A stretch of 64,000 bases of DNA. Origin: an uncultured Gammaproteobacteria bacterium. GTDB lineage: Bacteria; Patescibacteriota; Patescibacteriia; UBA1558; GWA2-36-10. Shown piece by piece: positions 3,763-58,339 of the stretch; within the stretch, counting starts at the first letter, position 1, and each line of letters opens with the position of its first letter. Location of the stretch: the NCBI GenBank assembly GCA_964515785.1, contig CAZEWH010000001.1, positions 11,730-75,729 of the forward strand, given 5' to 3'. The notes below the pieces were generated by a model, which made no database searches, was not told the DNA's origin, and worked only from the letters and a program-made list of their open reading frames with translations. The translations under genes were made by a program, and so were the position numbers.

Positions 3763-4702
3763 GAACCCGACTGTCAAACGATCTGGCTGGCCTTATCGTT
3801 TCTGGAAGTGGACCTATCAGAATCGTTTCTGGAACAAGGACTTGCCCGAGCGTTTCTCGCTCTGTGCCTTTACCCAGCGCAGCATCTGGTTGGGATTTTT
3901 CCTACTGCCGCTGCTGTATGCCATCTACTTCTTGGTGGCTTGGTTTATTTACGACGTGCTTTATCGTCGGGTGGTCAGTCATATCACCAAGTACGCACCG
4001 CTGGCTGCTCTGCTGATTTGGCTGCCTCTGGTAGCTCTCAGTTTCTGGGGAGGTATGTCTGAAACAGCAATTGTCTTGGTCATTCTGACAGGCATTCTTT
4101 TGGGTATCCTAGTGGCGGCCGTTGTGATCATGGTGGCATGTTACTTACTGTGGGAGTTGATTAAAAAGGTCTTTACCTTCAACACTCAAGTGCATAGCTA
4201 CCACTATGTGCCTAGTAGTGAGTATCGTCGGCCGCTGGATCGCTACGACTTCAACCACGACACTGATCAAGGACTTGTCCATACCTTGTTCTGGATGCAG
4301 CCTCTCATCTGGCTCGGCATCTTTGCTCTGCTGGGAGGTTTTGGCGGAGGACACTATATCTCTAACCAGACCTTTGATCCGGTGTTGGCCAAGAAGTTCA
4401 TGCTTGGCTATGGCATTTTCTTCGTTGCTTACTACATCGGTGCCACCTTTTTCCTTTGGCGACACTGGAAGAAGGAAGTCAGGATCGAGCGGGGAGAAAT
4501 CGAGCGTCATCCGGAAAAACCGTCCAAGCCCAAGAAAGTGCGCAAGCACAAGGGCTGGTTTGGCCGCTGGTGGCTGGGTACTGTTTGGCCTGGCCGGTTT
4601 GGTAACCTCTTCCGTAACATCGGCGAGTTCCTCTGTCTGCTATGGGATGGCCTCAAGGCCCTCAAGCATCAGGTCTGCCCGATCATGGAAGTAGTGGAAT
4701 AG
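3752..4702 (+). CDS. hypothetical polytopic membrane protein with basic C-terminal tail, GC-rich, overlaps upstream gene by 11 nt, SD GAGGAGG
   Basis: 316 aa; several hydrophobic helices; RBS GAGGAGGCGAGTCATG inside the upstream ORF end. Confidence 0.55.
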   Translation: MFVKNPTVKRSGWPYRFWKWTYQNRFWNKDLPERFSLCAFTQRSIWLGFFLLPLLYAIYFLVAWFIYDVLYRRVVSHITKYAPLAALLIWLPLVALSFWGGMSETAIVLVILTGILLGILVAAVVIMVACYLLWELIKKVFTFNTQVHSYHYVPSSEYRRPLDRYDFNHDTDQGLVHTLFWMQPLIWLGIFALLGGFGGGHYISNQTFDPVLAKKFMLGYGIFFVAYYIGATFFLWRHWKKEVRIERGEIERHPEKPSKPKKVRKHKGWFGRWWLGTVWPGRFGNLFRNIGEFLCLLWDGLKALKHQVCPIMEVVE

Positions 4703-4759: not shown

Positions 4760-4788
4760 TTGACAATATTTTTATTAGCTGTTAATAT
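4760..4788 (+). promoter_or_regulatory. consensus promoter TTGACA-N17-TAATAT of an orphan small transcription unit
   Basis: TTGACA 4760-4765, 17-nt spacer, TAATAT 4783-4788; no protein gene downstream before terminator. Confidence 0.5.
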
Positions 4789-4795
4789 ATACATA

Positions 4796-4936
4796 TCATC
4801 GTTCTTCAAAGATGTAAGCAATTCACCGCCAGAGACGTCTCTCTATCACCCGGATCTTGGTCTAGACAGACTCTCAATCAATGCTTACAACTTTTACCCA
4901 CAGGACTCTACTTCGGTAGAGTCCTTTCTTTTATTT
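4796..4936 (+). ncRNA. candidate ~135-nt small RNA ending in terminator hairpin GGACTCTACTTCGGTAGAGTCC + T-run
   Basis: promoter at 4760-4788; internal palindromes GAGACGTCTC and GTCTAGAC; terminator hairpin 4903-4924 is near-identical to the one ending cassette U3 at 18063-18084 (minus strand); no SD-preceded ORF. Confidence 0.35.
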
Positions 4937-5016
4937 AACCCCCTAAATCCCCCTTGTCAGGGGGACTTTTTTGTTTAAATAATTCCTCCCCTGACAAGGG
5001 GAGGTTAGGAGGGGTT
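4937..5016. repeat. 80-bp GC-rich palindromic intergenic element, copy 1 (AACCCCCTAAATCCCCCTTGTCAGGGGGAC ... TCCTCCCCTGACAAGGGGAGGTTAGGAGGGGTT)
   Basis: two internal hairpins (C5-TTGTCA-G5 and CCTCCCC-TGACAA-GGGGAGG) whose loops are reverse complements; outer arms AACCCCC/GGGGTT; second copy at 10999-11092. Confidence 0.8.
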
Positions 5017-9144: not shown

Positions 9145-10999
9145 AGTAGTAAAAAGAAATTTAGACGCAGCACGTCGAGCTCCAGTACGCAAAAAATCTT
9201 ATGAAGCCCCGGTAGTCCGTCGTCGTAAGCGTGAAGTACCAAAAGAATACCGTACTATGGAAAAAGCTTCCAAAAAAGGCGGTGGTTGTTTATTCTTTTT
9301 ATTTTTAATATTTGTAGTTGCTCTAGCTGGCCTCATCTATTGGAATAAAAACGGAACTACCAATACTGACGAGAGTATCACTGTCCGTGTAGATGGTCCC
9401 AAAAAAATAATTTCTGGTGATCAGGTAGTTTATGAAATAGAATATGAAAATTTAGATATAGTAACTCTAGAAAATATAAAGCTTTCTGTGCGTTGGCCAA
9501 ATGGATTTTATTTTGATGAAGCAAATATAGAACCTAGTGATCAAAATGCTACTACATGGTATCTTGATGATTTGCCAACCAAACAATCCAATTCACTAGA
9601 AATAAAAGGACAATTAGTTGGCCAAAAAGATGATGAGTTATCTGCTATCTTTACTCTAGAATATCAGCCAGTAAACTTTCATTCTGATTTTTCTGTCAAA
9701 GAAATTATAGATACAAAAATATCTGATAGCAAAATAGAGTTGAGTATAGATGCTGTAGACAAGACCTTGGTAGCCACTGAACAGACTATTAATATTAGTT
9801 TTAAAAATTTAACAAATAGAGATTTAGAAGATTTGTATCTAGATATTATTTATCCAGAAGATTTTGTTTTGTTAGATGAACTAAGTTCAAATGAAGAGGA
9901 GGAAGAAGATCTTGAAGATTTTGTAGACGAAGAAGTAGTAGAAGAAGAATCTATCTTTATTCCAGAGGATGATTATTGGAAATTTTCTTTGCCAGCAGCC
10001 ATTGAAGCTAATATGGTTTTGTATGGTGTTTTTCCGGTTGATAGCAAGAGTCAACAATCTTTGATTGTAGAAGTTGGTAATATGATTGATGGTACTTTCC
10101 GTCGTCTGTCACAAGTGACACAAGATATTCAAGTAGTAAATCCAAAATTTGATATAGATTTTTCTATCAATAACGAATACAACAATCCAACAGTCAATTG
10201 GGGTGACATTTTGCGTTATCAATTGGAAGTCACCAACCTAAGTGAGACAGAATTTAATGGTGTTGTTGTTACTGCCTTACTTGATAGTCAAGTATTAGAT
10301 TGGGAAGGTTTGGATACTGTTGGTATAGTACAAGAATCAAATATTATCTGGACCAGTGCTGAAGATGAAGAATTAGATATTTGGCCACCTGGTGATAGCC
10401 GAATTTTTACTTGGCAAATAGATATCATAGATCAGCCAGTCCCAGAACGCATGATTGAAAATATTATCAAAATAAATGTTGATGGCTTGGCAGATTGGGA
10501 ACAAGTGACTACTCCTTTGTTGGTCACTGTTGGTGAAGCAGTTGTCTTTAATAATGGTATTTATTGGGATTTGGGTGGACGACGTGTTGGCTCTGGTTTG
10601 CTGCCACCACAGATGGGAGAGAGTACTCAATATTTAGTGATATGGTCTATACCAGAAGCCACTGGTAATTTTGATTCAGCTACAGTTGTGACTACTTTTC
10701 CACCAGAGGTCAAATTTTTATCAGAAACAGATATACAAGAAGGTGAAATTATTTTTGATGATGATACTAGAAATTTGACTTGGCAGATAGATGATCTGGA
10801 CAATTTACTTTTACCAATGACTGCTTCATTTATTATTGAAGTCATCCCTACTGAAGACAATGTAGGTAGTGCTATGGTCTTGATGAATCCTACTACTTTG
10901 ACAGCTGAGGGTATAGAGCAAGTTATTATTAGATCCAAGATGCTCAAAACTTCTGATGTCTATGCTGATAGTAGCGAGCCGATTGGTATAGTTGAATAA
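9137..10999 (+). CDS. hypothetical large membrane-anchored protein (basic N-terminus, TM helix, acidic E-rich stretch, repeat-like beta domains)
   Basis: 620 aa; overlaps recO stop by 8 nt; TM CLFFLFLIFVVALAGLIYW; EEEEEDLEDFVDEEVVEEE. Confidence 0.6.
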   Translation: MAKVVKRNLDAARRAPVRKKSYEAPVVRRRKREVPKEYRTMEKASKKGGGCLFFLFLIFVVALAGLIYWNKNGTTNTDESITVRVDGPKKIISGDQVVYEIEYENLDIVTLENIKLSVRWPNGFYFDEANIEPSDQNATTWYLDDLPTKQSNSLEIKGQLVGQKDDELSAIFTLEYQPVNFHSDFSVKEIIDTKISDSKIELSIDAVDKTLVATEQTINISFKNLTNRDLEDLYLDIIYPEDFVLLDELSSNEEEEEDLEDFVDEEVVEEESIFIPEDDYWKFSLPAAIEANMVLYGVFPVDSKSQQSLIVEVGNMIDGTFRRLSQVTQDIQVVNPKFDIDFSINNEYNNPTVNWGDILRYQLEVTNLSETEFNGVVVTALLDSQVLDWEGLDTVGIVQESNIIWTSAEDEELDIWPPGDSRIFTWQIDIIDQPVPERMIENIIKINVDGLADWEQVTTPLLVTVGEAVVFNNGIYWDLGGRRVGSGLLPPQMGESTQYLVIWSIPEATGNFDSATVVTTFPPEVKFLSETDIQEGEIIFDDDTRNLTWQIDDLDNLLLPMTASFIIEVIPTEDNVGSAMVLMNPTTLTAEGIEQVIIRSKMLKTSDVYADSSEPIGIVE

Positions 11000-11092
11000 A
11001 CCCCCTAAATCCCCCTTGTCAGGGGGACTTGATGGATATAGAATATGTTAGTTAATTAGTTCCTCCCCTGACAAGGGGAGGTCAGGAGGGGT
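10999..11092. repeat. GC-rich palindromic intergenic element, copy 2 (same arms as 4937-5016 with longer central spacer)
   Basis: AACCCCCTAAATCCCCCTTGTCAGGGGGAC ... TCCTCCCCTGACAAGGGGAGGTCAGGAGGGGTT; arms nearly identical to copy 1. Confidence 0.8.
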
Positions 11093-14739: not shown

Positions 14740-17417
14740 TCAAATTCCAACAATGTGATAAGTGTCAAGGCAAGGGCTTGATAGATAATCGTAAATGCGA
14801 AGCCTGTTTTGGATTTAAGAGTTTTTATTTTTCAAATAACAATTTTCTTTTTTGGCAAGACAAGATAAATTATGCTCAGATTTTTATTCGGGAGTTCAAA
14901 CAGACTATCAACATGTTGGTCAATACTTTATTGATCTTGGGTGCTATTTTTACTTTAGTCTTGATTTATATTATTTTAAATAAGGTTCAATTTGATCCTC
15001 GCAACTTATGGGCTTTTATAACTGACGTTCATCGATACAATCTGTGGTTGTTTATTATGATTGTCTTGGATATGTATTTGTATTATCGTTTGACTATTCC
15101 TACTATCAAATCTAAAAACAAATTTAGTATTTTAAAAAATAAAAATTCTTTTGTAAAACATAATATTGCTGACAATTTGAGTCAGGAAGCTAGACGGATT
15201 ATTGATCGAGCTTGGCTTTATGCTCATCACAAAAAAGTCTGGCCAGTCACATCTTGGCATGTTTTGTATGTTTTATTTGATGACAAGGATATTCGTTTAG
15301 TGTTGGCTCGTCTGGGCTTGGGAGCAGACAATCTAAAAAATAAAATAGACCAAGATATAGCTCAATTAGCTAAACAGTCAGAGCCAGGTAAAGGTTTGAC
15401 ACATACTATCAAAGAAGCATTGCTAAATGCTTATTTTCATATGCATGATCGTCAAGCTCAGACTATTGCTGAAGTTGATTTGTTGTTTGGTTTAGCTGTG
15501 TCTAGTCAAGGTGTCAAAAATTTCTTTTATGATTTTGATATTGATGAACAAAAAATCAACAATGTTGTTGCTTGGATTAAAATAAATAATTTATTAAAAC
15601 GACGTTATCAACGTTTTCGTTCCAAATCATTTTTAAAACCAAAAGGTGATGTTAATCGAGCTTATACAGCTATAGCTACTCCGATTTTAGATTCTTTTTC
15701 TCAGGACTTTACCAAGATGGCTAGAGCTGGATATTTACCTCTTTCAGTAGCTCGAGAAAAAGAGATTGACGAAGTTCTCAATACTATTGAAAGTGGTCAA
15801 GATTCTGTAGTGCTGGTCGGTGACCCAGGAGTAGGTAAGGGCAATATTGTCGAAGGTCTAGCCAATCGTATGATGGCTGAAGAAGTACCTTTGTTTTTTC
15901 AAGACAAACGCTTGGTGAGTGTTTCTATACCATTATTGATTTCTGGGGCCACTGGTACAGGTAAATTGGAGGAAAGATTTATAGCTCTACTCAATGAAGT
16001 AGCAGTCTCTGGAAATATTATTTTATTTATCGATGATATCCATAATCTAGCTGGTGTATCTTCTGAGGGGACTGAAGGGGTTGATCTTTCAGAAGTTTTA
16101 GCTGCTGAAGTACGCAAACACAATATTATTGTGATTGGTGCAACCAACAGCAAAGAATTTGTTCAATACATAGAAGGCAAGGCTCTTGGACAGGCCTTAA
16201 AAAAGATAAATATCTTAGAACCAGATAAAAATCAAGCTATTCAAATCATGCAAGCACATGTTGGTCATGTAGAAAATAAACATCATGTTTATTTTACTTA
16301 TGATGCTTTGGAAAAAATTTATGATTTAGCTGGTAGATATATTACTGATCAAGCTTTACCAAAAAAAGCTATCGGACTAATGGATGAAGCTGGTATTATG
16401 GTAGCCAAAGCTGGTCGTCAAGATAAATTAGTTAGAGGTGAGGATATTGCATCTTTAGTTAGTCATAAGACCAACATACCATTGACACAAGTTACAGCTA
16501 AAGAATCGACTAAATTAATGAATTTGGAAGAAGAAATTCATCAGCGTATCATTGGTCAAGATGAAGCAGTCAAGCTAGTATCAGCTGCCCTGCGTCGCGC
16601 TCGAGCTGAGTTGCGAGACCGTAAACGACCAATAGTAAATCTATTATTTTTGGGTCCAACTGGTGTGGGTAAAACAGAACTTGCCAAAACTGTAGCGGAA
16701 AAATATTTTGGTGATGAACAAAATATGATCAGACTGGATATGTCAGAATATCAGACTCAAGCTAGCTTGCCGCGCTTGATTGGTTCACCACAAAATTCTA
16801 CTCCAGGTTTATTGACTGAAGCTGTCCGTCACAAACCATTTGCTTTGCTGTTGCTTGATGAAATAGAAAAAGCTCACCCAGAAATACTTAATATCTTTTT
16901 ACAAATTATGGAAGATGGTCGTTTGACTGATGCTTTGGGTCGGACTGTTGATTTTACCAATTTGATATTGGTAGCTACTTCCAATGCTGGTACATCTTAT
17001 ATTCAAGATCAGATAAATGCTGGCCGGCAGATAGATGACTTTAAAGATGATTTGATAAAAAATCAAATTAGAGATATTTTTGCTCCAGAATTTATCAATC
17101 GTTTTGATGGTACAGTAGTTTTCCGGCCACTTACTCAAGATGAGATTTTTAAGATTGCTGGTCTGATGCTAAATAAAGTTAGAAAGCGTTTAGAAATCAA
17201 AGGCATATTTTTTGAAATTACAGAAGATGCTCAATGGGAGTTGGCTAGAGCTGGTTTTGATCCAGTCTTTGGCGCCAGGCCTTTGCGTAGAGTGATCCAA
17301 GACAATGTAGACAATGCTTTGGCAAATTATTTATTGACTGGCAAGATTGGTCGTCGTGATACAGTAGTCTATGATGAGGGTGGCAAGATCAGTGTCAAAA
17401 AAGCCAAAGGTTACTAA
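14730..17417 (+). CDS. ClpC/ClpB-like double-ring AAA+ chaperone with N-terminal DnaJ-type zinc finger and two TM helices
   Basis: 895 aa; CDKCQGKG and CEACFGFK (CxxCxGxG x2); two hydrophobic helices; two Clp_N repeats; NBD1 Walker A GDPGVGKGN (Thr replaced), Walker B FIDDIH (E to D); NBD2 canonical GPTGVGKT / LLLDEIEKA; no IGF/VGF-type ClpP loop seen. Confidence 0.85.
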   Translation: MEVIKFQQCDKCQGKGLIDNRKCEACFGFKSFYFSNNNFLFWQDKINYAQIFIREFKQTINMLVNTLLILGAIFTLVLIYIILNKVQFDPRNLWAFITDVHRYNLWLFIMIVLDMYLYYRLTIPTIKSKNKFSILKNKNSFVKHNIADNLSQEARRIIDRAWLYAHHKKVWPVTSWHVLYVLFDDKDIRLVLARLGLGADNLKNKIDQDIAQLAKQSEPGKGLTHTIKEALLNAYFHMHDRQAQTIAEVDLLFGLAVSSQGVKNFFYDFDIDEQKINNVVAWIKINNLLKRRYQRFRSKSFLKPKGDVNRAYTAIATPILDSFSQDFTKMARAGYLPLSVAREKEIDEVLNTIESGQDSVVLVGDPGVGKGNIVEGLANRMMAEEVPLFFQDKRLVSVSIPLLISGATGTGKLEERFIALLNEVAVSGNIILFIDDIHNLAGVSSEGTEGVDLSEVLAAEVRKHNIIVIGATNSKEFVQYIEGKALGQALKKINILEPDKNQAIQIMQAHVGHVENKHHVYFTYDALEKIYDLAGRYITDQALPKKAIGLMDEAGIMVAKAGRQDKLVRGEDIASLVSHKTNIPLTQVTAKESTKLMNLEEEIHQRIIGQDEAVKLVSAALRRARAELRDRKRPIVNLLFLGPTGVGKTELAKTVAEKYFGDEQNMIRLDMSEYQTQASLPRLIGSPQNSTPGLLTEAVRHKPFALLLLDEIEKAHPEILNIFLQIMEDGRLTDALGRTVDFTNLILVATSNAGTSYIQDQINAGRQIDDFKDDLIKNQIRDIFAPEFINRFDGTVVFRPLTQDEIFKIAGLMLNKVRKRLEIKGIFFEITEDAQWELARAGFDPVFGARPLRRVIQDNVDNALANYLLTGKIGRRDTVVYDEGGKISVKKAKGY

Positions 17418-17440
17418 ATTATATTTTTATTAAAAAAAGA

Positions 17441-17469
17441 AAAAAGGAACAGAATACTGTTCCTTTTTG
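17441..17469. terminator. bidirectional intrinsic terminator (AGGAACAG-AATA-CTGTTCCT flanked by A-run and T-run)
   Basis: 8-bp stem; A10 upstream, T5 downstream. Confidence 0.75.
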
Positions 17470-17473
17470 ATTT

Positions 17474-17689
17474 TCAAGTATTGACTTGCATAGAAAGCCA
17501 ACGGTCTAGCACGCTGCGCAAAAAGCGCCAATCACCACCGACTTTTTTGGCCGGGATCTTACCTTCTCTGGCTAGACGACAGACTGTCTTTGTGTGCATC
17601 TTGAGATATTCGGCTGCCTCGACAGCGTTAAGGACAGGGGGAGGAGTAGAGGTATGATGGCTTAGGTGCCCCTGATCATTATTGGTCAT
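17474..17689 (-). CDS. excisionase-family helix-turn-helix DNA-binding protein (GC-rich, strong SD)
   Basis: 71 aa; AVEAAEYLKMHTKTVCRLAREGKIPAKKVGGDWRF matches Xis/MerR-superfamily excisionase HTH; SD AAGGAGA 6 nt upstream of ATG; about 50% GC. Confidence 0.7.
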   Translation of the reverse strand: MTNNDQGHLSHHTSTPPPVLNAVEAAEYLKMHTKTVCRLAREGKIPAKKVGGDWRFLRSVLDRWLSMQVNT

Positions 17690-17744
17690 AATTATCTCCT
17701 TGAAAATGATGCATTTTAGTGAAAGAGCTTATTAAAACAATTGT

Positions 17745-17774
17745 ATTAAAGCATTTAATATGTTTTTTTGTCAA
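17745..17774 (-). promoter_or_regulatory. promoter TTGACA-N18-TTTAAT for excisionase-family gene
   Basis: minus-strand TTGACA (plus 17769-17774), TTTAAT (plus 17745-17750). Confidence 0.5.
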
Positions 17775-17794
17775 CCTGCCTGCCGGTAAGCAGG

Positions 17795-17926
17795 AAATAA
17801 AAAGGGCCCCGTCGAGATGATCTCGACGGGGCTTCAGCACCCCTGCTGCACCAGCTTGCTTTACCTTCTTGCGGAGGCGTAAAGGCTGGTATTTTTATTT
17901 TAGCAGTTATTTTGATTTTTTGTCAA
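17795..17926 (-). ncRNA. mini-cassette U1: promoter TTGACA-N18-TAAAAT, ~95-nt GC-rich structured RNA, perfect terminator (GCCCCGTCGAGA-TCA-TCTCGACGGGGC + U-run)
   Basis: minus-strand -35 at plus 17921-17926, -10 at 17897-17902; 5' hairpin ACCAGCCUUUAC..GUAAAGCAAGCUGGU; terminator stem plus 17806-17832, A-run 17795-17803. Confidence 0.4.
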
Positions 17927-18042
17927 AAGAAAAAGGGGACCTCACTAGAGATCCCCCGAGAAACGAAGTAGTCGTCTTCATATTGCCAATCGGAGTTTCC
18001 GATTAGCATATTTATTGTATTATTTATATAAAAAGTAGTCAA
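17927..18042 (-). ncRNA. mini-cassette U2: promoter TTGACT-N17-TACAAT, ~80-nt structured RNA, terminator GGGGAUCUCUAGUGAGGUCCCC + U-run
   Basis: -35 at plus 18037-18042, -10 at 18014-18019; 5' hairpin AAUCGGA-AAC-UCCGAUU; terminator plus 17935-17956. Confidence 0.4.
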
Positions 18043-18055
18043 GAATTTAAGATAA

Positions 18056-18227
18056 AGAAAAAGGGCTCTACCGAAGTAGAGCCCCTGTCGAAAGCGGCCA
18101 TACAGGCCCCTCGTACCTGCGGTCTCGCAGAGTCATCCTGTTACCTCCTGCTGGAGGTGCGCCGTGTCGGTTCGCTGTGTACAGCGAACGCAATATTAAT
18201 TGTATAGATAATTTAGTGTTTTGTCAA
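18056..18227 (-). ncRNA. mini-cassette U3: promoter TTGACA-N17-TACAAT, ~135-nt structured RNA with four perfect hairpins, terminator GGGCUCUACUUCGGUAGAGCCC + U-run; contains SD-preceded 22-codon ORF
   Basis: -35 at plus 18222-18227, -10 at 18199-18204; hairpins GUUCGCUGU/ACAGCGAAC, CCUCC/GGAGG, CUGCG/CGCAG; AGGAGGU-N6-AUG (ATG at 18136, stop 18068) encodes MTLRDRRYEGPVWPLSTGALLR; SD lies inside the CCUCC/GGAGG hairpin. Confidence 0.4.
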
Positions 18228-18250
18228 TTCTGCCTTTGGATGGGACAAGC

Positions 18251-18279
18251 TTGATAAATACCTTGATTTTAGCTATAAT
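18251..18279 (+). promoter_or_regulatory. promoter TTGATA-N17-TATAAT for glyQS
   Basis: TTGATA 18251-18256, TATAAT 18274-18279, about 38 nt upstream of ATG. Confidence 0.6.
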
Positions 18280-18316
18280 TTGTGTGTTAATAAGTATATA
18301 AATTTATTATTTTTTT

Positions 18317-19699
18317 ATGGAAAACGCACGGAAATTTGACAAGGTGGTAAATCTGGCAAAAACAAGAGGTTTTGTCTACCCATCTTCAGATATTTATGGA
18401 GGACTGAATTCTATTTATGATTATGGCCCACTAGGAGTTGAGCTAAAAAACAACATCAAGCAAGCTTGGTGGGATTTTATGTTGGCTCGCAAAGATGTAG
18501 TTGGGCTTGATTCAGCTATTTTGGCGCATCCCAAAATCTGGGAAGCTTCTGGGCATCTAGAGGGTTTTACTGATCCACTAGTAGATTGCAAAAAATGTAA
18601 AGCTAGATTTAGGGCTGATAATCTTCTTGAAAAAAAAGGTATCAAACCTGAATTTGTCCAAGGCAAGCCACAGAATATGAATGATATAAAATGTCCAGAT
18701 TGTGGCGGTGAGTTGACTGACGTTCGTCAGTTCAACCTTATGTTCAAGACTTTTATGGGAGCTTTGGAAGATCAGGCTAGTCAGATCTATATGCGACCTG
18801 AAACTGCTCAAGGTATTTATGTCAATTTTTTGCATGTCAAAGACAGCATGCGCATGAAGATGCCTTTTGGTGTTGCCCAGATTGGTAAAGCTTTTCGTAA
18901 TGAGATCACGCCAGGTAATTTTATTTTCCGTATGCGTGAATTTGAGCAAATGGAAATGCAATATTTTGTCAAAGCAACTGATACTCAAAAAGTTTTTGAT
19001 ACTTGGCAAAAATTACGTATGGACTGGTATTTGTCTTTAGGTATTGATAAAAATAATATTAGATTTCGTGATCATGCCAAAGATGAATTAGCTCATTATG
19101 CTAAACAAGCTATAGATATTGAATATAAGTTTGAATTTACTCCTAATGAAGATTTCAAAGAACTAGAAGGCATCCATGATCGGGGTAATTGGGATCTATC
19201 TCGTCACCAAGAATTTTCCGGACAAAAGATGTCTGTCAAAGACGAAGCAGAGTATATTCCCAATATAATAGAAACTTCAGGTGGAGTTGATCGAGCTATG
19301 TTTGCTTTTTTGATGGATGCTTATGATGAAGTAGATACTCGTAGTGGTGACAAAGATGCCAAGCATAGTACTGAAGTAGTTCTTAGACTTCATCCTAAAT
19401 TGGCGCCTATTAAAATAGCGATCTTGCCATTATCTAAGAAACCTGACTTAGCCAAAAAGACTCAAGGAGTCTATGATATGCTTGTCAATAAATATCGTAT
19501 TCAATATGATGAGACTGGTAGCATTGGTAAACGTTATCGTCGCCAAGATGAGATTGGTACGCCATATTGTATTACTATTGACTTTGATAGTTTGGAAGAT
19601 GATCAAGTGACTATTCGTGATCGCGATACTATGAAGCAAGAGCGAATTGCTATCAAGGATTTAGAAAATTATTTTGTTGATAAATTTTCACCCTGTTAA
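18317..19699 (+). CDS. glyQS: glycyl-tRNA synthetase (dimeric class II GlyRS)
   Basis: 460 aa; class II motifs; zinc-knuckle CKKCKARF..CPDCGGEL; anticodon-binding domain. Confidence 0.95.
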   Translation: MENARKFDKVVNLAKTRGFVYPSSDIYGGLNSIYDYGPLGVELKNNIKQAWWDFMLARKDVVGLDSAILAHPKIWEASGHLEGFTDPLVDCKKCKARFRADNLLEKKGIKPEFVQGKPQNMNDIKCPDCGGELTDVRQFNLMFKTFMGALEDQASQIYMRPETAQGIYVNFLHVKDSMRMKMPFGVAQIGKAFRNEITPGNFIFRMREFEQMEMQYFVKATDTQKVFDTWQKLRMDWYLSLGIDKNNIRFRDHAKDELAHYAKQAIDIEYKFEFTPNEDFKELEGIHDRGNWDLSRHQEFSGQKMSVKDEAEYIPNIIETSGGVDRAMFAFLMDAYDEVDTRSGDKDAKHSTEVVLRLHPKLAPIKIAILPLSKKPDLAKKTQGVYDMLVNKYRIQYDETGSIGKRYRRQDEIGTPYCITIDFDSLEDDQVTIRDRDTMKQERIAIKDLENYFVDKFSPC

Positions 19700-19724: not shown

Positions 19725-19979
19725 ATGTTTTATACTTATATATTGCTTAGTGAGAAAGATAATAAATTTTATACGGGTTTTACAAAAGATTTAAATTTAA
19801 GATTTAAGCAACACAAAGAAGGTAAAGTAAAATCTACTATGAATAGGCGGCCTCTTAAATTAATATATTATGAAGTATGTTTAAATCAACAGGATGCTAC
19901 AAAAAGAGAAAAATATTTTAAAACATATTTTGGTAAAATGTTTATTAGAAATAGACTTAAATCTTATTTAACAGGGTGA
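19725..19979 (+). CDS. GIY-YIG nuclease domain protein (UPF0213-like)
   Basis: 84 aa; FYTYILLSEKDNKFYTGFTKDLNLRFKQH = GIY-YIG core with conserved R and E. Confidence 0.75.
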   Translation: MFYTYILLSEKDNKFYTGFTKDLNLRFKQHKEGKVKSTMNRRPLKLIYYEVCLNQQDATKREKYFKTYFGKMFIRNRLKSYLTG

Positions 19980-55578: not shown

Positions 55579-55773
55579 ATGTCAGATATGCCAGAGCATG
55601 ATGACAGCTTTGTCCGCGAAGATACACTTGGTTGGACAGGTAATCATCATGATGAAATCGGCCTCAAAGACAGTGGCCAGTATCAAGCAATTACTGGCCA
55701 AGAAGATCACAGTTTCAGTGATGTTTCTTGGTCTGGTGATAGTGTGACTGGAGATGCTATCTTTCCTGGCTGA
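55579..55773 (+). CDS. hypothetical acidic small protein, GC-rich, SD AAAGGAGGTGA
   Basis: 64 aa; D/E/H-rich, low complexity. Confidence 0.4.
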   Translation: MSDMPEHDDSFVREDTLGWTGNHHDEIGLKDSGQYQAITGQEDHSFSDVSWSGDSVTGDAIFPG

Positions 55774-55784
55774 TCTAGCCTCGC

Positions 55785-55820
55785 TTTGTATTTTTACAAG
55801 GCGAGGCTATCTAAAAATTA
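55785..55820 (+). terminator. hairpin TAGCCTCGC..GCGAGGCTA after GC-rich module
   Basis: 9-bp stem, 16-nt loop. Confidence 0.45.
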
Positions 55821-55879
55821 ATTATTTGATATATATTTTAGCTTATGTTAAGTTAAAGCTAATTATTAAGAACAAACAT

Positions 55880-57370
55880 ATGAATTTAGTATTACAAGCA
55901 AAAATTGAACAAATGCCACAGGTGATGTTTTATCCTGTTTTGGAGGACAATCAAGCTATTATTAGATTGATTAATAGTTTTGACTATGAAGATCAATCAG
56001 CTATTTTGACTCGTCTTAAAGCTGAAAAATTTGTAGGAAAAAAATCACAGGTTTTTATTATAAATGAACCTGGTTTATCAGTAGTTTTACTAGGTACTGG
56101 TCAAAGTAAAAAATTAAACTCAGAAGATTGGAGAATTTTAGCTGGAAATATTATAGCTTATCTTCAAAAATATTCAGCTAAAAATATTGGCCTTATAGCT
56201 CAAGACTGGCTGAAAAATAATTCTAATGTAGAATTATTTGGTCAATCTTTAGCCGAAGGCTTGATGCTAGCAAGTTATGAATTTATTAAGTACAAAAAAA
56301 TAGACAAAAATAAAATAAATATAAATATTGAAAATATTTTTGTAGAAATTTCTTCAGATAAAAAAAATAAATTTCAAAAAGGCTGGGATACTGGTTTATT
56401 GATGACTGAGGCAACTAATCTAGCTCGTGATCTAGTCAATGAACCAGCTGGCGTGATGACGCCGACTTTTTTGGCAGATACAGCTCGTCAGATTGCCAAA
56501 GACAATAAAAATATCTCTGTAAAAATATTAGACAAAGAAGCTTGTCAAAAATTAGGTATGAATGCATATCTTGGAGTTGACCAAGGTTCAGAACAGCCTT
56601 TGCAGTTTATACATCTTGTATACAAACCAGCTCGCAAATCAAAAGATATTATTGCTTTGGTGGGCAAGGGTATTACTTTTGATAGTGGAGGACTCAACAT
56701 CAAGACAGGCGATAGTATGTCTCAAATGAAAGTTGATATGGCGGGAGCAGCGACCGTCTTAGGTATTTTTGCTAGTATTGGAAAACTGAAACCAAAGTCA
56801 GAAGTCCATGGTATTGTAGCTGCTTGTGAAAACATGCCATCTGGTACAGCCCTCAAACCTGGAGATGTTATTTCTAATATGCAGGGTAAGACTATTGAAA
56901 TAGGTAATACTGATGCTGAAGGTCGAGTGACTCTAGCTGACTCTCTGGCTTATGCTCAAAAAAAAGGCGCCAAAACTATCATAGACTTAGCTACTTTGAC
57001 TGGAGCTTGTATGATTGCTCTAGGACCAGAATATACTGCTTTGTTTGCCAATGATCAAAGTTTAGCTAAAGATTTATTAAAAACTGCAGATCAAACTGGC
57101 GAGAAAATATGGCAATTGCCTTTACCAGATGAATATAAAGAACTCAATAAAAGCAAGATAGCTGATATAAATAATATACCAAACACTAGATATGGCGGAG
57201 CTATTACTGCAGCTTTGTTTTTGCAAGAATTTATAAATCAAGATATCAAATGGTCTCACTGGGATATAGCAGGACCTGCTTATGCTGAAAAACCGTTCAA
57301 TAGCTATATTCCTCAGGGAGGGGTTGGTTTTGGAGTAAGGACTTTACTTGCTTGGTTATTAGCTAAATAG
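55880..57370 (+). CDS. pepA: leucyl aminopeptidase (M17 family)
   Basis: start set at MNLVLQAK; NTDAEGRVTLAD signature and Zn ligands; ORF-track N-terminal 42 aa likely spurious. Confidence 0.9.
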   Translation: MNLVLQAKIEQMPQVMFYPVLEDNQAIIRLINSFDYEDQSAILTRLKAEKFVGKKSQVFIINEPGLSVVLLGTGQSKKLNSEDWRILAGNIIAYLQKYSAKNIGLIAQDWLKNNSNVELFGQSLAEGLMLASYEFIKYKKIDKNKININIENIFVEISSDKKNKFQKGWDTGLLMTEATNLARDLVNEPAGVMTPTFLADTARQIAKDNKNISVKILDKEACQKLGMNAYLGVDQGSEQPLQFIHLVYKPARKSKDIIALVGKGITFDSGGLNIKTGDSMSQMKVDMAGAATVLGIFASIGKLKPKSEVHGIVAACENMPSGTALKPGDVISNMQGKTIEIGNTDAEGRVTLADSLAYAQKKGAKTIIDLATLTGACMIALGPEYTALFANDQSLAKDLLKTADQTGEKIWQLPLPDEYKELNKSKIADINNIPNTRYGGAITAALFLQEFINQDIKWSHWDIAGPAYAEKPFNSYIPQGGVGFGVRTLLAWLLAK

Positions 57371-57374
57371 GCTA

Positions 57375-57538
57375 TTGACAGTATTTGAGGGAATTGCTAT
57401 GCTATAAGCAGTTCTTTCATGCAGTCGTCATTCCAAACCATCTACTGGGTTTTTTGCTCCTGACCTGACCGCCTCCTTGACCGCGTTTGATTGCCATGAC
57501 GAGCCTCCGACCCTCGTAGCTTTGCTACGGGGGTTTTT
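57375..57538 (+). ncRNA. orphan cassette A: promoter TTGACA-N17-TATGCT, ~120-nt GC-rich structured RNA, terminator CCCTCGTAG-CTTTG-CTACGGGGG + T5
   Basis: located between convergent pepA and pth; contains CCUCCUU (anti-SD-like) and GTCGTCATTCC..GCCATGACGAGC inverted repeat; no credible ORF. Confidence 0.4.
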
Positions 57539-57554
57539 CTTATTTATCAAAGAC

Positions 57555-57700
57555 TTGACAGGATATTTGATTTGGTATAATATATATCCACGATCTTTCG
57601 ATGCCAGAAGAGCGATCTAACAAATGTCGGGAGCCCATTCCCACTCTCGTGTGCTGCGCTTTTCCGACGAGCCCTTGTTGCCTTGCAACAAGGGTTTTTT
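57555..57700 (+). ncRNA. orphan cassette B: promoter TTGACA-N17-TAATAT, ~105-nt GC-rich structured RNA, terminator CCCTTGTTGC-CTT-GCAACAAGGG + T6
   Basis: shares CGACGAGCC + terminator architecture with cassette A. Confidence 0.4.
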
Positions 57701-57755
57701 CTTTGTATACTAAAAATGTCCAGAGTGCGAAAAGCACCGGGGACACAACCTGAAT

Positions 57756-57784
57756 AACCCTTTCAGCAATTTGTTGAAAGGGTT
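57756..57784 (-). terminator. hairpin AACCCTTTCAGCAA-TT-TTGTTGAAAGGGTT abutting pth stop
   Basis: near-perfect 14-bp dyad. Confidence 0.5.
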
Positions 57785-58339
57785 TTAATTATATTTATTA
57801 GAAGTGACTGTAAATCCTTTTTTGATAATAGATTCTAAAATCAAATGACTAGTGTCGATAATTTCAGCTAGTTTTTTCTTTTGTTCAGAATCAAATTTTT
57901 TAAGCACAAAACCTTCTGCATTACCTTTTTGAGTGCCAATACCAAGTCTAATACGGATAAAATCTTTTGATTTTAGATGTTTGATAGTTGATTCAACACC
58001 TTTATGACCACCAGCTGATTTTTTTCGGCTGATACGTATTTTGCCAAAAGGCAAATCTATATCATCATAAATAATAATTATTTTTGTGGTGGGTATTTTA
58101 TAAAAAGATTTTAGTTTTTTGACAGCTCTACCAGATTCATTCATATAAGTCAGTGGCTTGGCAATAATATTTTTTTCTCTATCAATCTTGAAGTCAGCCA
58201 AGGCACTATTACTGGCTTTATGTGATTTCCAGTTCAAGCTTTTTTTGTTAGCTAAAGAATCCAAAACCATCCAACCAAAGTTGTGGCGGGTCTTAGCATA
58301 TTTTTTGTCTGGATTTCCTAGTCCAATGATCAAACGCAT
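57785..58339 (-). CDS. pth: peptidyl-tRNA hydrolase
   Basis: 184 aa; MRLIIGLGNPDKKYAKTRHNFGW N-terminus with catalytic His. Confidence 0.92.
   Translation of the reverse strand: MRLIIGLGNPDKKYAKTRHNFGWMVLDSLANKKSLNWKSHKASNSALADFKIDREKNIIAKPLTYMNESGRAVKKLKSFYKIPTTKIIIIYDDIDLPFGKIRISRKKSAGGHKGVESTIKHLKSKDFIRIRLGIGTQKGNAEGFVLKKFDSEQKKKLAEIIDTSHLILESIIKKGFTVTSNKYN

Follow-up and report, generated by a model that had tools for sequence, protein, structure and literature searches.

We report that a 64,000-nucleotide (nt) stretch of contig CAZEWH010000001.1 (assembly GCA_964515785.1; this whole stretch is hereafter referred to as the window) carries, between glyQS and clpC, a minus-strand block of three predicted small transcription units and a gene for a small helix-turn-helix (HTH) protein of the HTH_17 type, with the order of transcription U3, U2, U1 and then the HTH_17 gene (within 17200-18500). 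On balance and with moderate confidence, we interpret this block as an island of new, genus-restricted, independently transcribed small RNA (sRNA) genes, in which individual units are replaceable. As judged from a comparison with congeneric species, two of these units, U3 and U1, appear to be genuine genus-restricted RNA genes that evolve under purifying selection at the nucleotide level and would represent new RNA families. This assignment to new structured RNAs is supported by their conservation in congeners, the retention of promoter hexamers, compensatory changes in stems and the absence of any Rfam match. The host is a Komeilibacteria-like bacterium of the candidate phyla radiation (CPR) with a window GC content of 34.6%; its clpC-like protein is 73% identical to a protein from a Candidatus Komeilibacteria bin and 70% identical to one from a Parcubacteria bin, which places the window genome in CPR/Patescibacteria. 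Around the block lie clpC, glyQS, tgt, pilin-like genes and housekeeping genes.

Each unit would be self-contained, combining a promoter, a structured RNA and an intrinsic terminator, and all three promoter/hairpin RNA/terminator units described in an initial annotation of this DNA were recovered on the minus strand (18227-17797), the promoters being of the near-consensus sigma-70 kind. In U3, a TTGACA-N17-TACAAT promoter (18227-18199, matching 11 of 12 positions in a consensus scan) precedes a predicted RNA of ~140 nt (18055..18193) comprising a 5' hairpin, an ACCUCC/GGAGGU hairpin, two more hairpins and an intrinsic terminator (18086-18061, terminator scan). In U2, a TTGACT-N17-TACAAT promoter (18042-18014, 10 of 12 positions) is followed by a species-specific RNA of ~79 nt (17930..18008) with a terminator at 17957-17934 (terminator scan). 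The U1 promoter, TTGACA-N18-TAAAAT with a TG extension (extended -10; 17926-17897, 11 of 12 positions), would drive an RNA of ~95 nt (17797..17891) in which a long hairpin with CCUC/GAGG as its apical stem is joined by a second hairpin that exposes a GGGG loop and by a terminator (17832-17806, terminator scan). Two details of the initial description had to be revised: its GC content of 50-55% for the region is replaced by a measured 44% for 17474-18230 (U3 59%, U1 57%, U2 47%, HTH coding sequence 50%, promoter spacers 13-18%), and the U-run of a terminator was found to run straight into the next -35 box at the U2-to-U1 junction only, a gap of 20-30 nt separating the two elements at the other two junctions.

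The density of these signals exceeds that of randomized sequence, with 10 promoter-like sites found by the consensus scan in the region (vs. 4.7 +/- 1.8 in shuffles) and seven terminator-like sites (vs. 1.5 +/- 1.1 in shuffles); each of the three promoters is followed, after 80-140 nt, by a strong terminator of the same orientation. The folds of all three predicted transcripts are more stable than those of 200/200 dinucleotide shuffles (z = -3.9 for U3, -6.6 for U2 and -5.0 for U1), the U3 fold having an energy of -62.2 kcal/mol. The units thereby show the arrangement typical of independent bacterial sRNA genes, with an own promoter and an intrinsic terminator around a predicted non-coding intergenic transcript.

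The block was further compared with related loci. Contigs encoding the HTH protein P0021 (up to 812 kb) have the order glyQS, a 760-nt gap, HTH_17, a small cassette, a 148-amino-acid (aa) gene and clpC, and the 93% (GlyRS) and 91% (ClpC) identity of their proteins to those of the window identify the P0021 species as a congener. The 760-nt gap holds a U3 homolog, an RNA of ~215 nt and a U1 homolog. Relative to the window, the additional content of the sister species comprises the cassette that follows the HTH gene and a DUF5684 gene. A third species, represented by contig L032 (HTH protein P0005), shows the 3' part of the 215-nt RNA and a U1 homolog. In the sister species the U-run abuts the next -35 box at four junctions. 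Within the strain of the window, the RNA block is identical except for isolated single-base differences in contigs L003 and L004, one of them located in a U3 hairpin loop.

Among three U3 sequence types, all from one genus, the overall identity of U3 is ~90%, and a core of ~100 nt hardly varies. Its 60-nt windows are 82-92% identical, as compared to 80-98% for the glyQS and clpC coding sequences and 50-75% for non-essential neighbours, so that the conservation of U3 is on a par with that of the housekeeping genes around it. The part of U3 from ACCUCC to the terminator is nearly invariant (L025, L028), differing by one hairpin-loop G/A, one A/G, a 1-nt indel and the linker before the AUG, which varies in length by 1-2 nt and in one base (GGAUG / AGAUG). 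The variable parts are the 5' hairpin, where one pair shows a compensatory C-G to U-A replacement and another position a U-A to U-G change, and the linker that follows it. In the sister species the -35 hexamer of the U3 promoter is invariant, the -10 hexamer reads TACAAT or TATAAT, and the spacer is variable. A U3 covariance model run against the sequences gathered here retrieved only U3 itself and a shared terminator at 4894-4932, with no paralogs.

For U1, three sequence types from the same genus (window, L025 and L032) were available, and helices were compared from individual folds because MAFFT misaligned the 5' half. The three species are ~68-80% identical over U1, with invariant parts comprising TGnTAAAAT in the promoter and ACC.G, CCUCC.CAA.GA.G and AAGCAA.CUGGU.CAGCAGGGGUG in the remainder. 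The outer stem accommodates C-G to U-A and A-U to G-U changes, and the terminator stems are fully rewritten between species yet still paired (covarying). The GGGG in the hairpin loop is invariant and, for two of the three species, is predicted to be unpaired with a probability of 1.0. Scans of viral sequences gave a single chance match to the U1 core, in a collagen-like open reading frame (ORF), and none to the U3 core.

No homolog of U2 was found in the sister species, where its slot is occupied by the unrelated RNA of ~215 nt, which has a TTGACA-17-TAGAAT promoter and a terminator of its own (L025 2509-2725; 3' part at L032 1-117). Conservation of this RNA extends to two species and includes at least one compensatory change in a hairpin (GGCGU/AUGCC vs. 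AGCG/GCGCU); it has no Rfam match and no counterpart in the window. The presence of a different RNA in the U2 slot indicates that individual units get replaced, and U2 itself, which is specific to this species, appears to have entered its slot recently. We also observed a 28-codon ORF in U2 (17925-18011, minus strand) with the AUG at 18011-18009, 2 nt past the -10 element and at or just upstream of the predicted transcription start; it would be leaderless at best and extends through the terminator into the next -35 box. As U2 is unconserved, this ORF is probably due to chance.

Searches for known RNAs returned no assignment. At the gathering score, Rfam 15, whose families include 6S RNA and riboswitches, had no match across the 64-kb window, and at E <= 10 only terminator look-alikes appeared within 17300-18400, with bit scores in the array of about half the gathering score or less. 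The best of these look-alikes, located at the HTH/clpC terminator, scored at most 33 bits against a gathering score of 45, and the sister-species loci were likewise devoid of meaningful matches at the gathering score and at E <= 10. The assignment of the whole block to one known RNA, named in the initial annotation as an outcome that would overturn its proposal, was therefore not obtained. Signal recognition particle RNA, RNase P RNA and transfer-messenger RNA (tmRNA) were considered by eye and rejected, with no support from Infernal; the same applies to a CsrA-binding sponge, for which the GGA of ACAGGAUGA reads AGA in the sister species and Infernal again gave no support. U1, U2 and U3 show no mutual similarity beyond promoter and terminator consensus in a repeat search and in short-word BLAST, which speaks against the earlier suggestion of a solitary-repeat or RNA decoy array. 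Within 17400-18300 the sole direct repeats are pieces of these same consensus elements; CRISPR, TIGR or type III antitoxin-like arrays were rejected for lack of regularly spaced direct repeats and of units matching one another. Of the explanations put forward initially, a new family of small structured RNAs agrees with U3 and U1 (conserved, with compensatory changes and no Rfam match), but it does not extend to U2, which lacks a homolog.

A shared feature of U3 and U1 is a hairpin in which CCUCC, resembling an anti-Shine-Dalgarno (anti-SD) sequence, pairs with GGAGG or GAGG, resembling a Shine-Dalgarno (SD) sequence. The occurrence of this CCUCC:GGAGG-type helix in both RNAs, together with the G-rich loop of U1, suggests an SD/anti-SD interplay. 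U3 and U1 may regulate translation or mRNA stability in trans, which would involve pairing of the SD/anti-SD type with either mRNAs or the 16S rRNA 3' end. Several observations weigh against the sRNA-island interpretation. The predicted folds leave most of the CCUCC motifs paired, and covariation is thin: with the terminators set aside, it amounts to a single compensatory pair in U3 and to one or two pairs in U1. In both species, U3 retains an open frame with its AUG and a strong SD, so that it may be translated. Complementarity of the units to targets within the 64-kb window does not exceed chance level (best antisense matches of 10-12 nt). A single metagenome scan with an exact 22-base U1-core pattern, which would miss diverged homologs, retrieved the sister species only, so the distribution of U1 is narrow or its sequence is fast-diverging. 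A more far-reaching version of the sRNA-island interpretation, which we consider a long shot, is that U3 and perhaps U1 represent a new class of constrained structured CPR RNA with an internal SD/anti-SD helix that would act on the ribosome, either in the manner of a 16S 3'-end mimic or sponge or as a translation start-site decoy that can be switched, and that the clpC-glyQS interval and the pepA-pth interval described below would be dedicated RNA-gene islands in which unrelated cassettes are acquired and exchanged as modules.

Tandem sRNA genes that lie head to tail and have individual promoters and terminators are known from LhrC1-4 of Listeria, PrrF1/2 and the Qrr RNAs, where they are paralogous copies. 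The block in the window resembles these arrays in its head-to-tail layout with a promoter and a terminator for each unit, but differs in that its units are unrelated in sequence and in that one slot holds different RNAs in sister species. Individually, the units also resemble the Hfq-independent sRNAs of Firmicutes (RsaE/RoxS and the Staphylococcus Rsa RNAs; PMC2790875) in being intergenic and 80-140 nt long, with hairpins, an own sigma-70 promoter and a Rho-independent terminator, and in having short conserved SD/anti-SD-related motifs. They differ in that they show no kinship with these RNAs in sequence or by Rfam, the exposed invariant motif of U1 is GGGG and not C-rich, CCUCC is paired internally, and the host is a CPR bacterium. 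In the literature we found almost nothing on riboregulation in CPR/Patescibacteria and no study of their sRNAs.

The arrangement is not limited to one locus of the window. A second head-to-tail array of three promoter-RNA-terminator units (57375-57790, plus strand) lies between pepA (55754-57370) and pth (57785-58339, minus strand), ending at this converging gene. Two congeners, with Pth proteins of 89% and 86% identity, share the position of this array as well as its promoters and its terminators, the latter with compensatory changes, and its unit B has the conserved core GUCGG..GGCCCAUUCCC...GUGCUGCGC.UUUCCGAC; no Rfam match was found for this array. In addition, a single cassette (4760-4935, plus strand) combines a TTGACA-17-TAATAT promoter, a transcript of ~140 nt and a terminator hairpin, AGGACUCUACUUCGGUAGAGUCCU, nearly identical to that of U3, the remainder being unrelated; the U3 hairpin in question, CTCTACTTCGGTAGAG, recurs here at 4902-4925. 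Identical hairpin blocks used as plain terminators at many loci, which according to the initial annotation would count against the units, were not encountered: the one recurring hairpin closes a unit with its own promoter. Directly after this cassette we observed one copy of a paired-hairpin element, CCCCCTTGTCAGGGGGA ... CCTCCCCTGACAAGGGGAGG (4937-5010), of which a second intergenic copy lies ~6 kb apart (10999-11087); the two copies are identical at 32/32 and 27/28 nt and resemble a repetitive extragenic palindromic (REP)-type intergenic repeat.

Taken together, the second array and the extra cassettes indicate that tandem structured small RNAs are recurrent in this genus. CPR organisms with their small genomes appear to have set aside several intergenic regions for structured small RNAs with strong promoters, and the present analysis provides candidates whose coordinates, promoters and structures are specified. 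The alignments of U3 and U1 can serve as seeds for new RNA families, and the replacement of U2 by an unrelated RNA in the sister species offers a small clean case of sRNA gene turnover. The finding is confined to one genus and represents a useful lead and not a surprise.

The best surviving alternative, albeit an improbable one, concerns U3, which could be the mRNA of a basic protein of 22-26 aa whose translation is gated by an SD-sequestering hairpin (riboregulated or heat-sensitive), a type I toxin being a sub-case. All elements noted in this respect by the initial annotation are present: the SD-sequestering hairpin ACCUCC-AGCA-GGAGGU (18158-18143), read directly from the sequence, and the AUG (18136) of a 22-codon ORF, MTLRDRRYEGPVWPLSTGALLR (18068..18136), whose UAG stop is located inside the 3' arm of the terminator. 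The spacing between AGGAGG and AUG is 7-9 nt in all sequence types, SD and AUG being kept while the length of the linker varies; the frame stays open into the terminator (window) or just past it (L025), and the first 18 codons are identical in both species. It is this very identity that points to RNA-level constraint, since none of the 18 shared codons shows a synonymous change between species, as opposed to a synonymous difference of 26% (glyQS) and 34% (clpC) among same-amino-acid codons in the same species pair (P ~0.002-0.005, from 0.7^18 to 0.74^18 at glyQS/clpC rates). The only two substitutions in the ORF, Y8C (L028 type) and W13R (L003/L004), are both non-synonymous and radical and fall at predicted unpaired positions, and the 1-nt indel alters the last 4-8 residues (...STGALLR to ...STGLYFGRALF). 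Zero synonymous changes, non-synonymous changes at unpaired sites and the C-terminal indel together form a pattern of constraint on the RNA, and the 22-codon ORF is probably not a conventional coding gene.

A resemblance of U3 to type I toxin-antitoxin loci consists in a short ORF, an SD sequestered in a hairpin and a small terminated transcript. It differs from them by a peptide that is not hydrophobic (grand average of hydropathy (GRAVY) -0.47, isoelectric point 10.7; hydrophilic and basic, unlike membrane-inserting type I toxins), by the absence of an antisense RNA gene and by an RNA-type conservation. There are no plus-strand promoter-like sites within U3, hence no antisense promoter opposite to it, the nearest being the glyQS promoter (18251) and a weak site matching 9/12 positions (17983). 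A classic type I toxin was ruled out on the grounds of the hydrophilic basic peptide, the frame shift between species and the RNA-like conservation, and the type I toxin-antitoxin-like locus suggested initially is likewise unsupported.

The HTH_17 gene at the 3' end of the block (17689-17474, minus strand, 71 aa) has the AAGGAG ribosome-binding site and the TTGACA-N18-TTTAAT promoter reported initially, the latter with a TG before the -10 element (17774-17745, sequence reading) and with TGnTTTAAT conserved in L025 and L032. It shares with the converging clpC gene a two-way terminator (17468-17441, terminator scan; inverted repeat I1). The gene forms a separate transcription unit, and its tie to the RNAs is positional only. 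The protein matches PF12728 (E = 6.5e-14, 52 bits vs. a cutoff of 27) and TIGR01764 (45 bits vs. a cutoff of 28.8), while its nearest solved structures, those of BldC (6AMA/6AMK), show weak similarity (E ~0.002-0.004). It remains far below the cutoff of NCBIfam HTH_BldC (NF033787; 19.2 bits vs. 77) and also misses the MADS1 cutoff. Like BldC, a developmental regulator of Streptomyces with a MerR-like/excisionase fold, it has ~70 aa with a single HTH_17-type domain and is encoded by a stand-alone chromosomal gene; unlike BldC, it scores below the HTH_BldC cutoff and belongs to a separate family of ~72 aa. This family has a strongly conserved core, EAAEYLKMHVKTVCRLAKEGKIPAKKVGSEWRFL, and is spread over many phyla, mostly high-GC and non-CPR. 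Its closest homologs come from Krumholzibacteria and other high-GC phyla (<=85% identity over the aligned ~3/4 of the protein). A CPR-type variant, MHTKTVCRLAR, is present in only three other proteins, P0021 among them, and the exact window protein was found in same-strain contigs only. The non-CPR homologs are chromosomal single genes and not genes of phages or integrative and conjugative elements. With respect to the excisionase-family label given initially, the HTH_17/Xis-type domain is there but no partner integrase or attachment sites accompany it, and the protein would be best described as a small stand-alone chromosomal regulator resembling BldC, not as an excisionase module. In passing, we noted sigma-54-like boxes (TGGCAT-N5-TTGCTG) 5' of the non-CPR homologs in genomes of 65-71% GC, ~55-155 nt upstream of the start (L007 3848-3864, L008 ~3929-3946, L012 ~3927-3944); outside CPR the 72-aa regulator family may be sigma-54-dependent.

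These features bear on a second alternative, somewhat less probable than a peptide encoded by U3, according to which a mobile element was acquired horizontally and the block represents its edge or what remains of it, with HTH_17 as excisionase and the RNAs as cargo. The block is absent from the clpC-glyQS interval of two relatives, Komeilibacteria with 70-73% ClpC identity, which lack both the HTH_17 gene and the RNAs: in one, the clpC-glyQS spacer is 264 nt, AT-rich and without hairpin cassettes, and in the other, the two genes are separated by an inserted malic-enzyme-like gene. The HTH gene has 50% GC in a 34.6% GC genome and its nearest homologs in high-GC phyla, with 75% nt identity to Krumholzibacteria-type genes over the coding core only; given this composition and identity, the gene itself was probably transferred horizontally from a high-GC lineage. 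Sister content also differs (U2 vs. the 215-nt RNA, the extra cassette, the DUF5684 gene), and several metagenome contigs break at this locus (L002, L005, L006, L024, L042). Against an acquired element stand the flanks, which hold only clpC, glyQS and housekeeping genes with no integrase or recombinase, as well as the lack of any attachment site or direct repeats found flanking the block. The initial report of no integrase and of no attachment site therefore holds, also with regard to transfer RNA (tRNA) and tmRNA genes, neither of which ARAGORN detected in the window. A blastn comparison of the block with phage genomes gave only a 25-nt chance match, the non-CPR homologs are chromosomal single genes, and the RNA units have no similarity to the flanks of these homologs outside the HTH coding core, on which ground we rejected the RNAs being relics of donor DNA. 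As the sister species share location and orientation of the block, vertical inheritance within the genus is suggested, with a gain that would postdate the divergence from those Komeilibacteria whose ClpC is 70-73% identical. The acquired element proposed initially is thus weakly favored by the absence in these relatives and by the high-GC kin of the HTH gene, and disfavored by the lack of an integrase, attachment site or flanking repeat and by the vertical pattern within the genus.

As for the contig breaks, contigs ending in the RNA block or right after clpC (L002, L005, L006, L024, L042, L043) may reflect strain-level differences. L024 (90% ClpC identity) ends just after clpC and fits the sister layout with the extra 148-aa gene, whereas L042 and L043, ending at or just after clpC, are uninformative on the block.

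It is rather doubtful, and less probable than either alternative above, that the units are cis-acting leaders or attenuators forming a terminator cascade, whose read-through would tune HTH_17, e.g., by translation of the U3 ORF melting its terminator. Such a scheme would profit from the co-orientation of the units with the HTH gene, from the U-runs abutting -35 boxes (one such junction in the window, four in the sister species) and from the U3 ORF ending in the terminator (window) or just beyond it (L025), where a translating ribosome would block termination. However, each unit and the HTH gene have their own strong conserved promoter, and read-through would meet two further strong terminators. 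On contig L031, encoding the same HTH protein as L032, an unrelated ORF is located upstream of the HTH gene, with no U1. Finally, the second array (57375-57790) runs up to a converging gene, and no ORF that it could control lies downstream.

That the units have no RNA function of their own, being instead products of chance or structural elements of the DNA (e.g., insulators, REP-like elements or stacked terminators), is very improbable: promoter-like sites are abundant in this AT-rich genome (117 per 20 kb vs. ~76-85 in shuffles) and one terminator hairpin recurs elsewhere, but the near-invariance of the U3 core, the compensatory changes, the kept hexamers and the ordered layout at two loci in three species imply selection.

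Beyond the block, we observed an 84-aa GIY-YIG ORF (19725-19979, plus strand) just after glyQS, which corresponds to a clean alignment gap in the sister species and may be a recently inserted homing-endonuclease-like gene.

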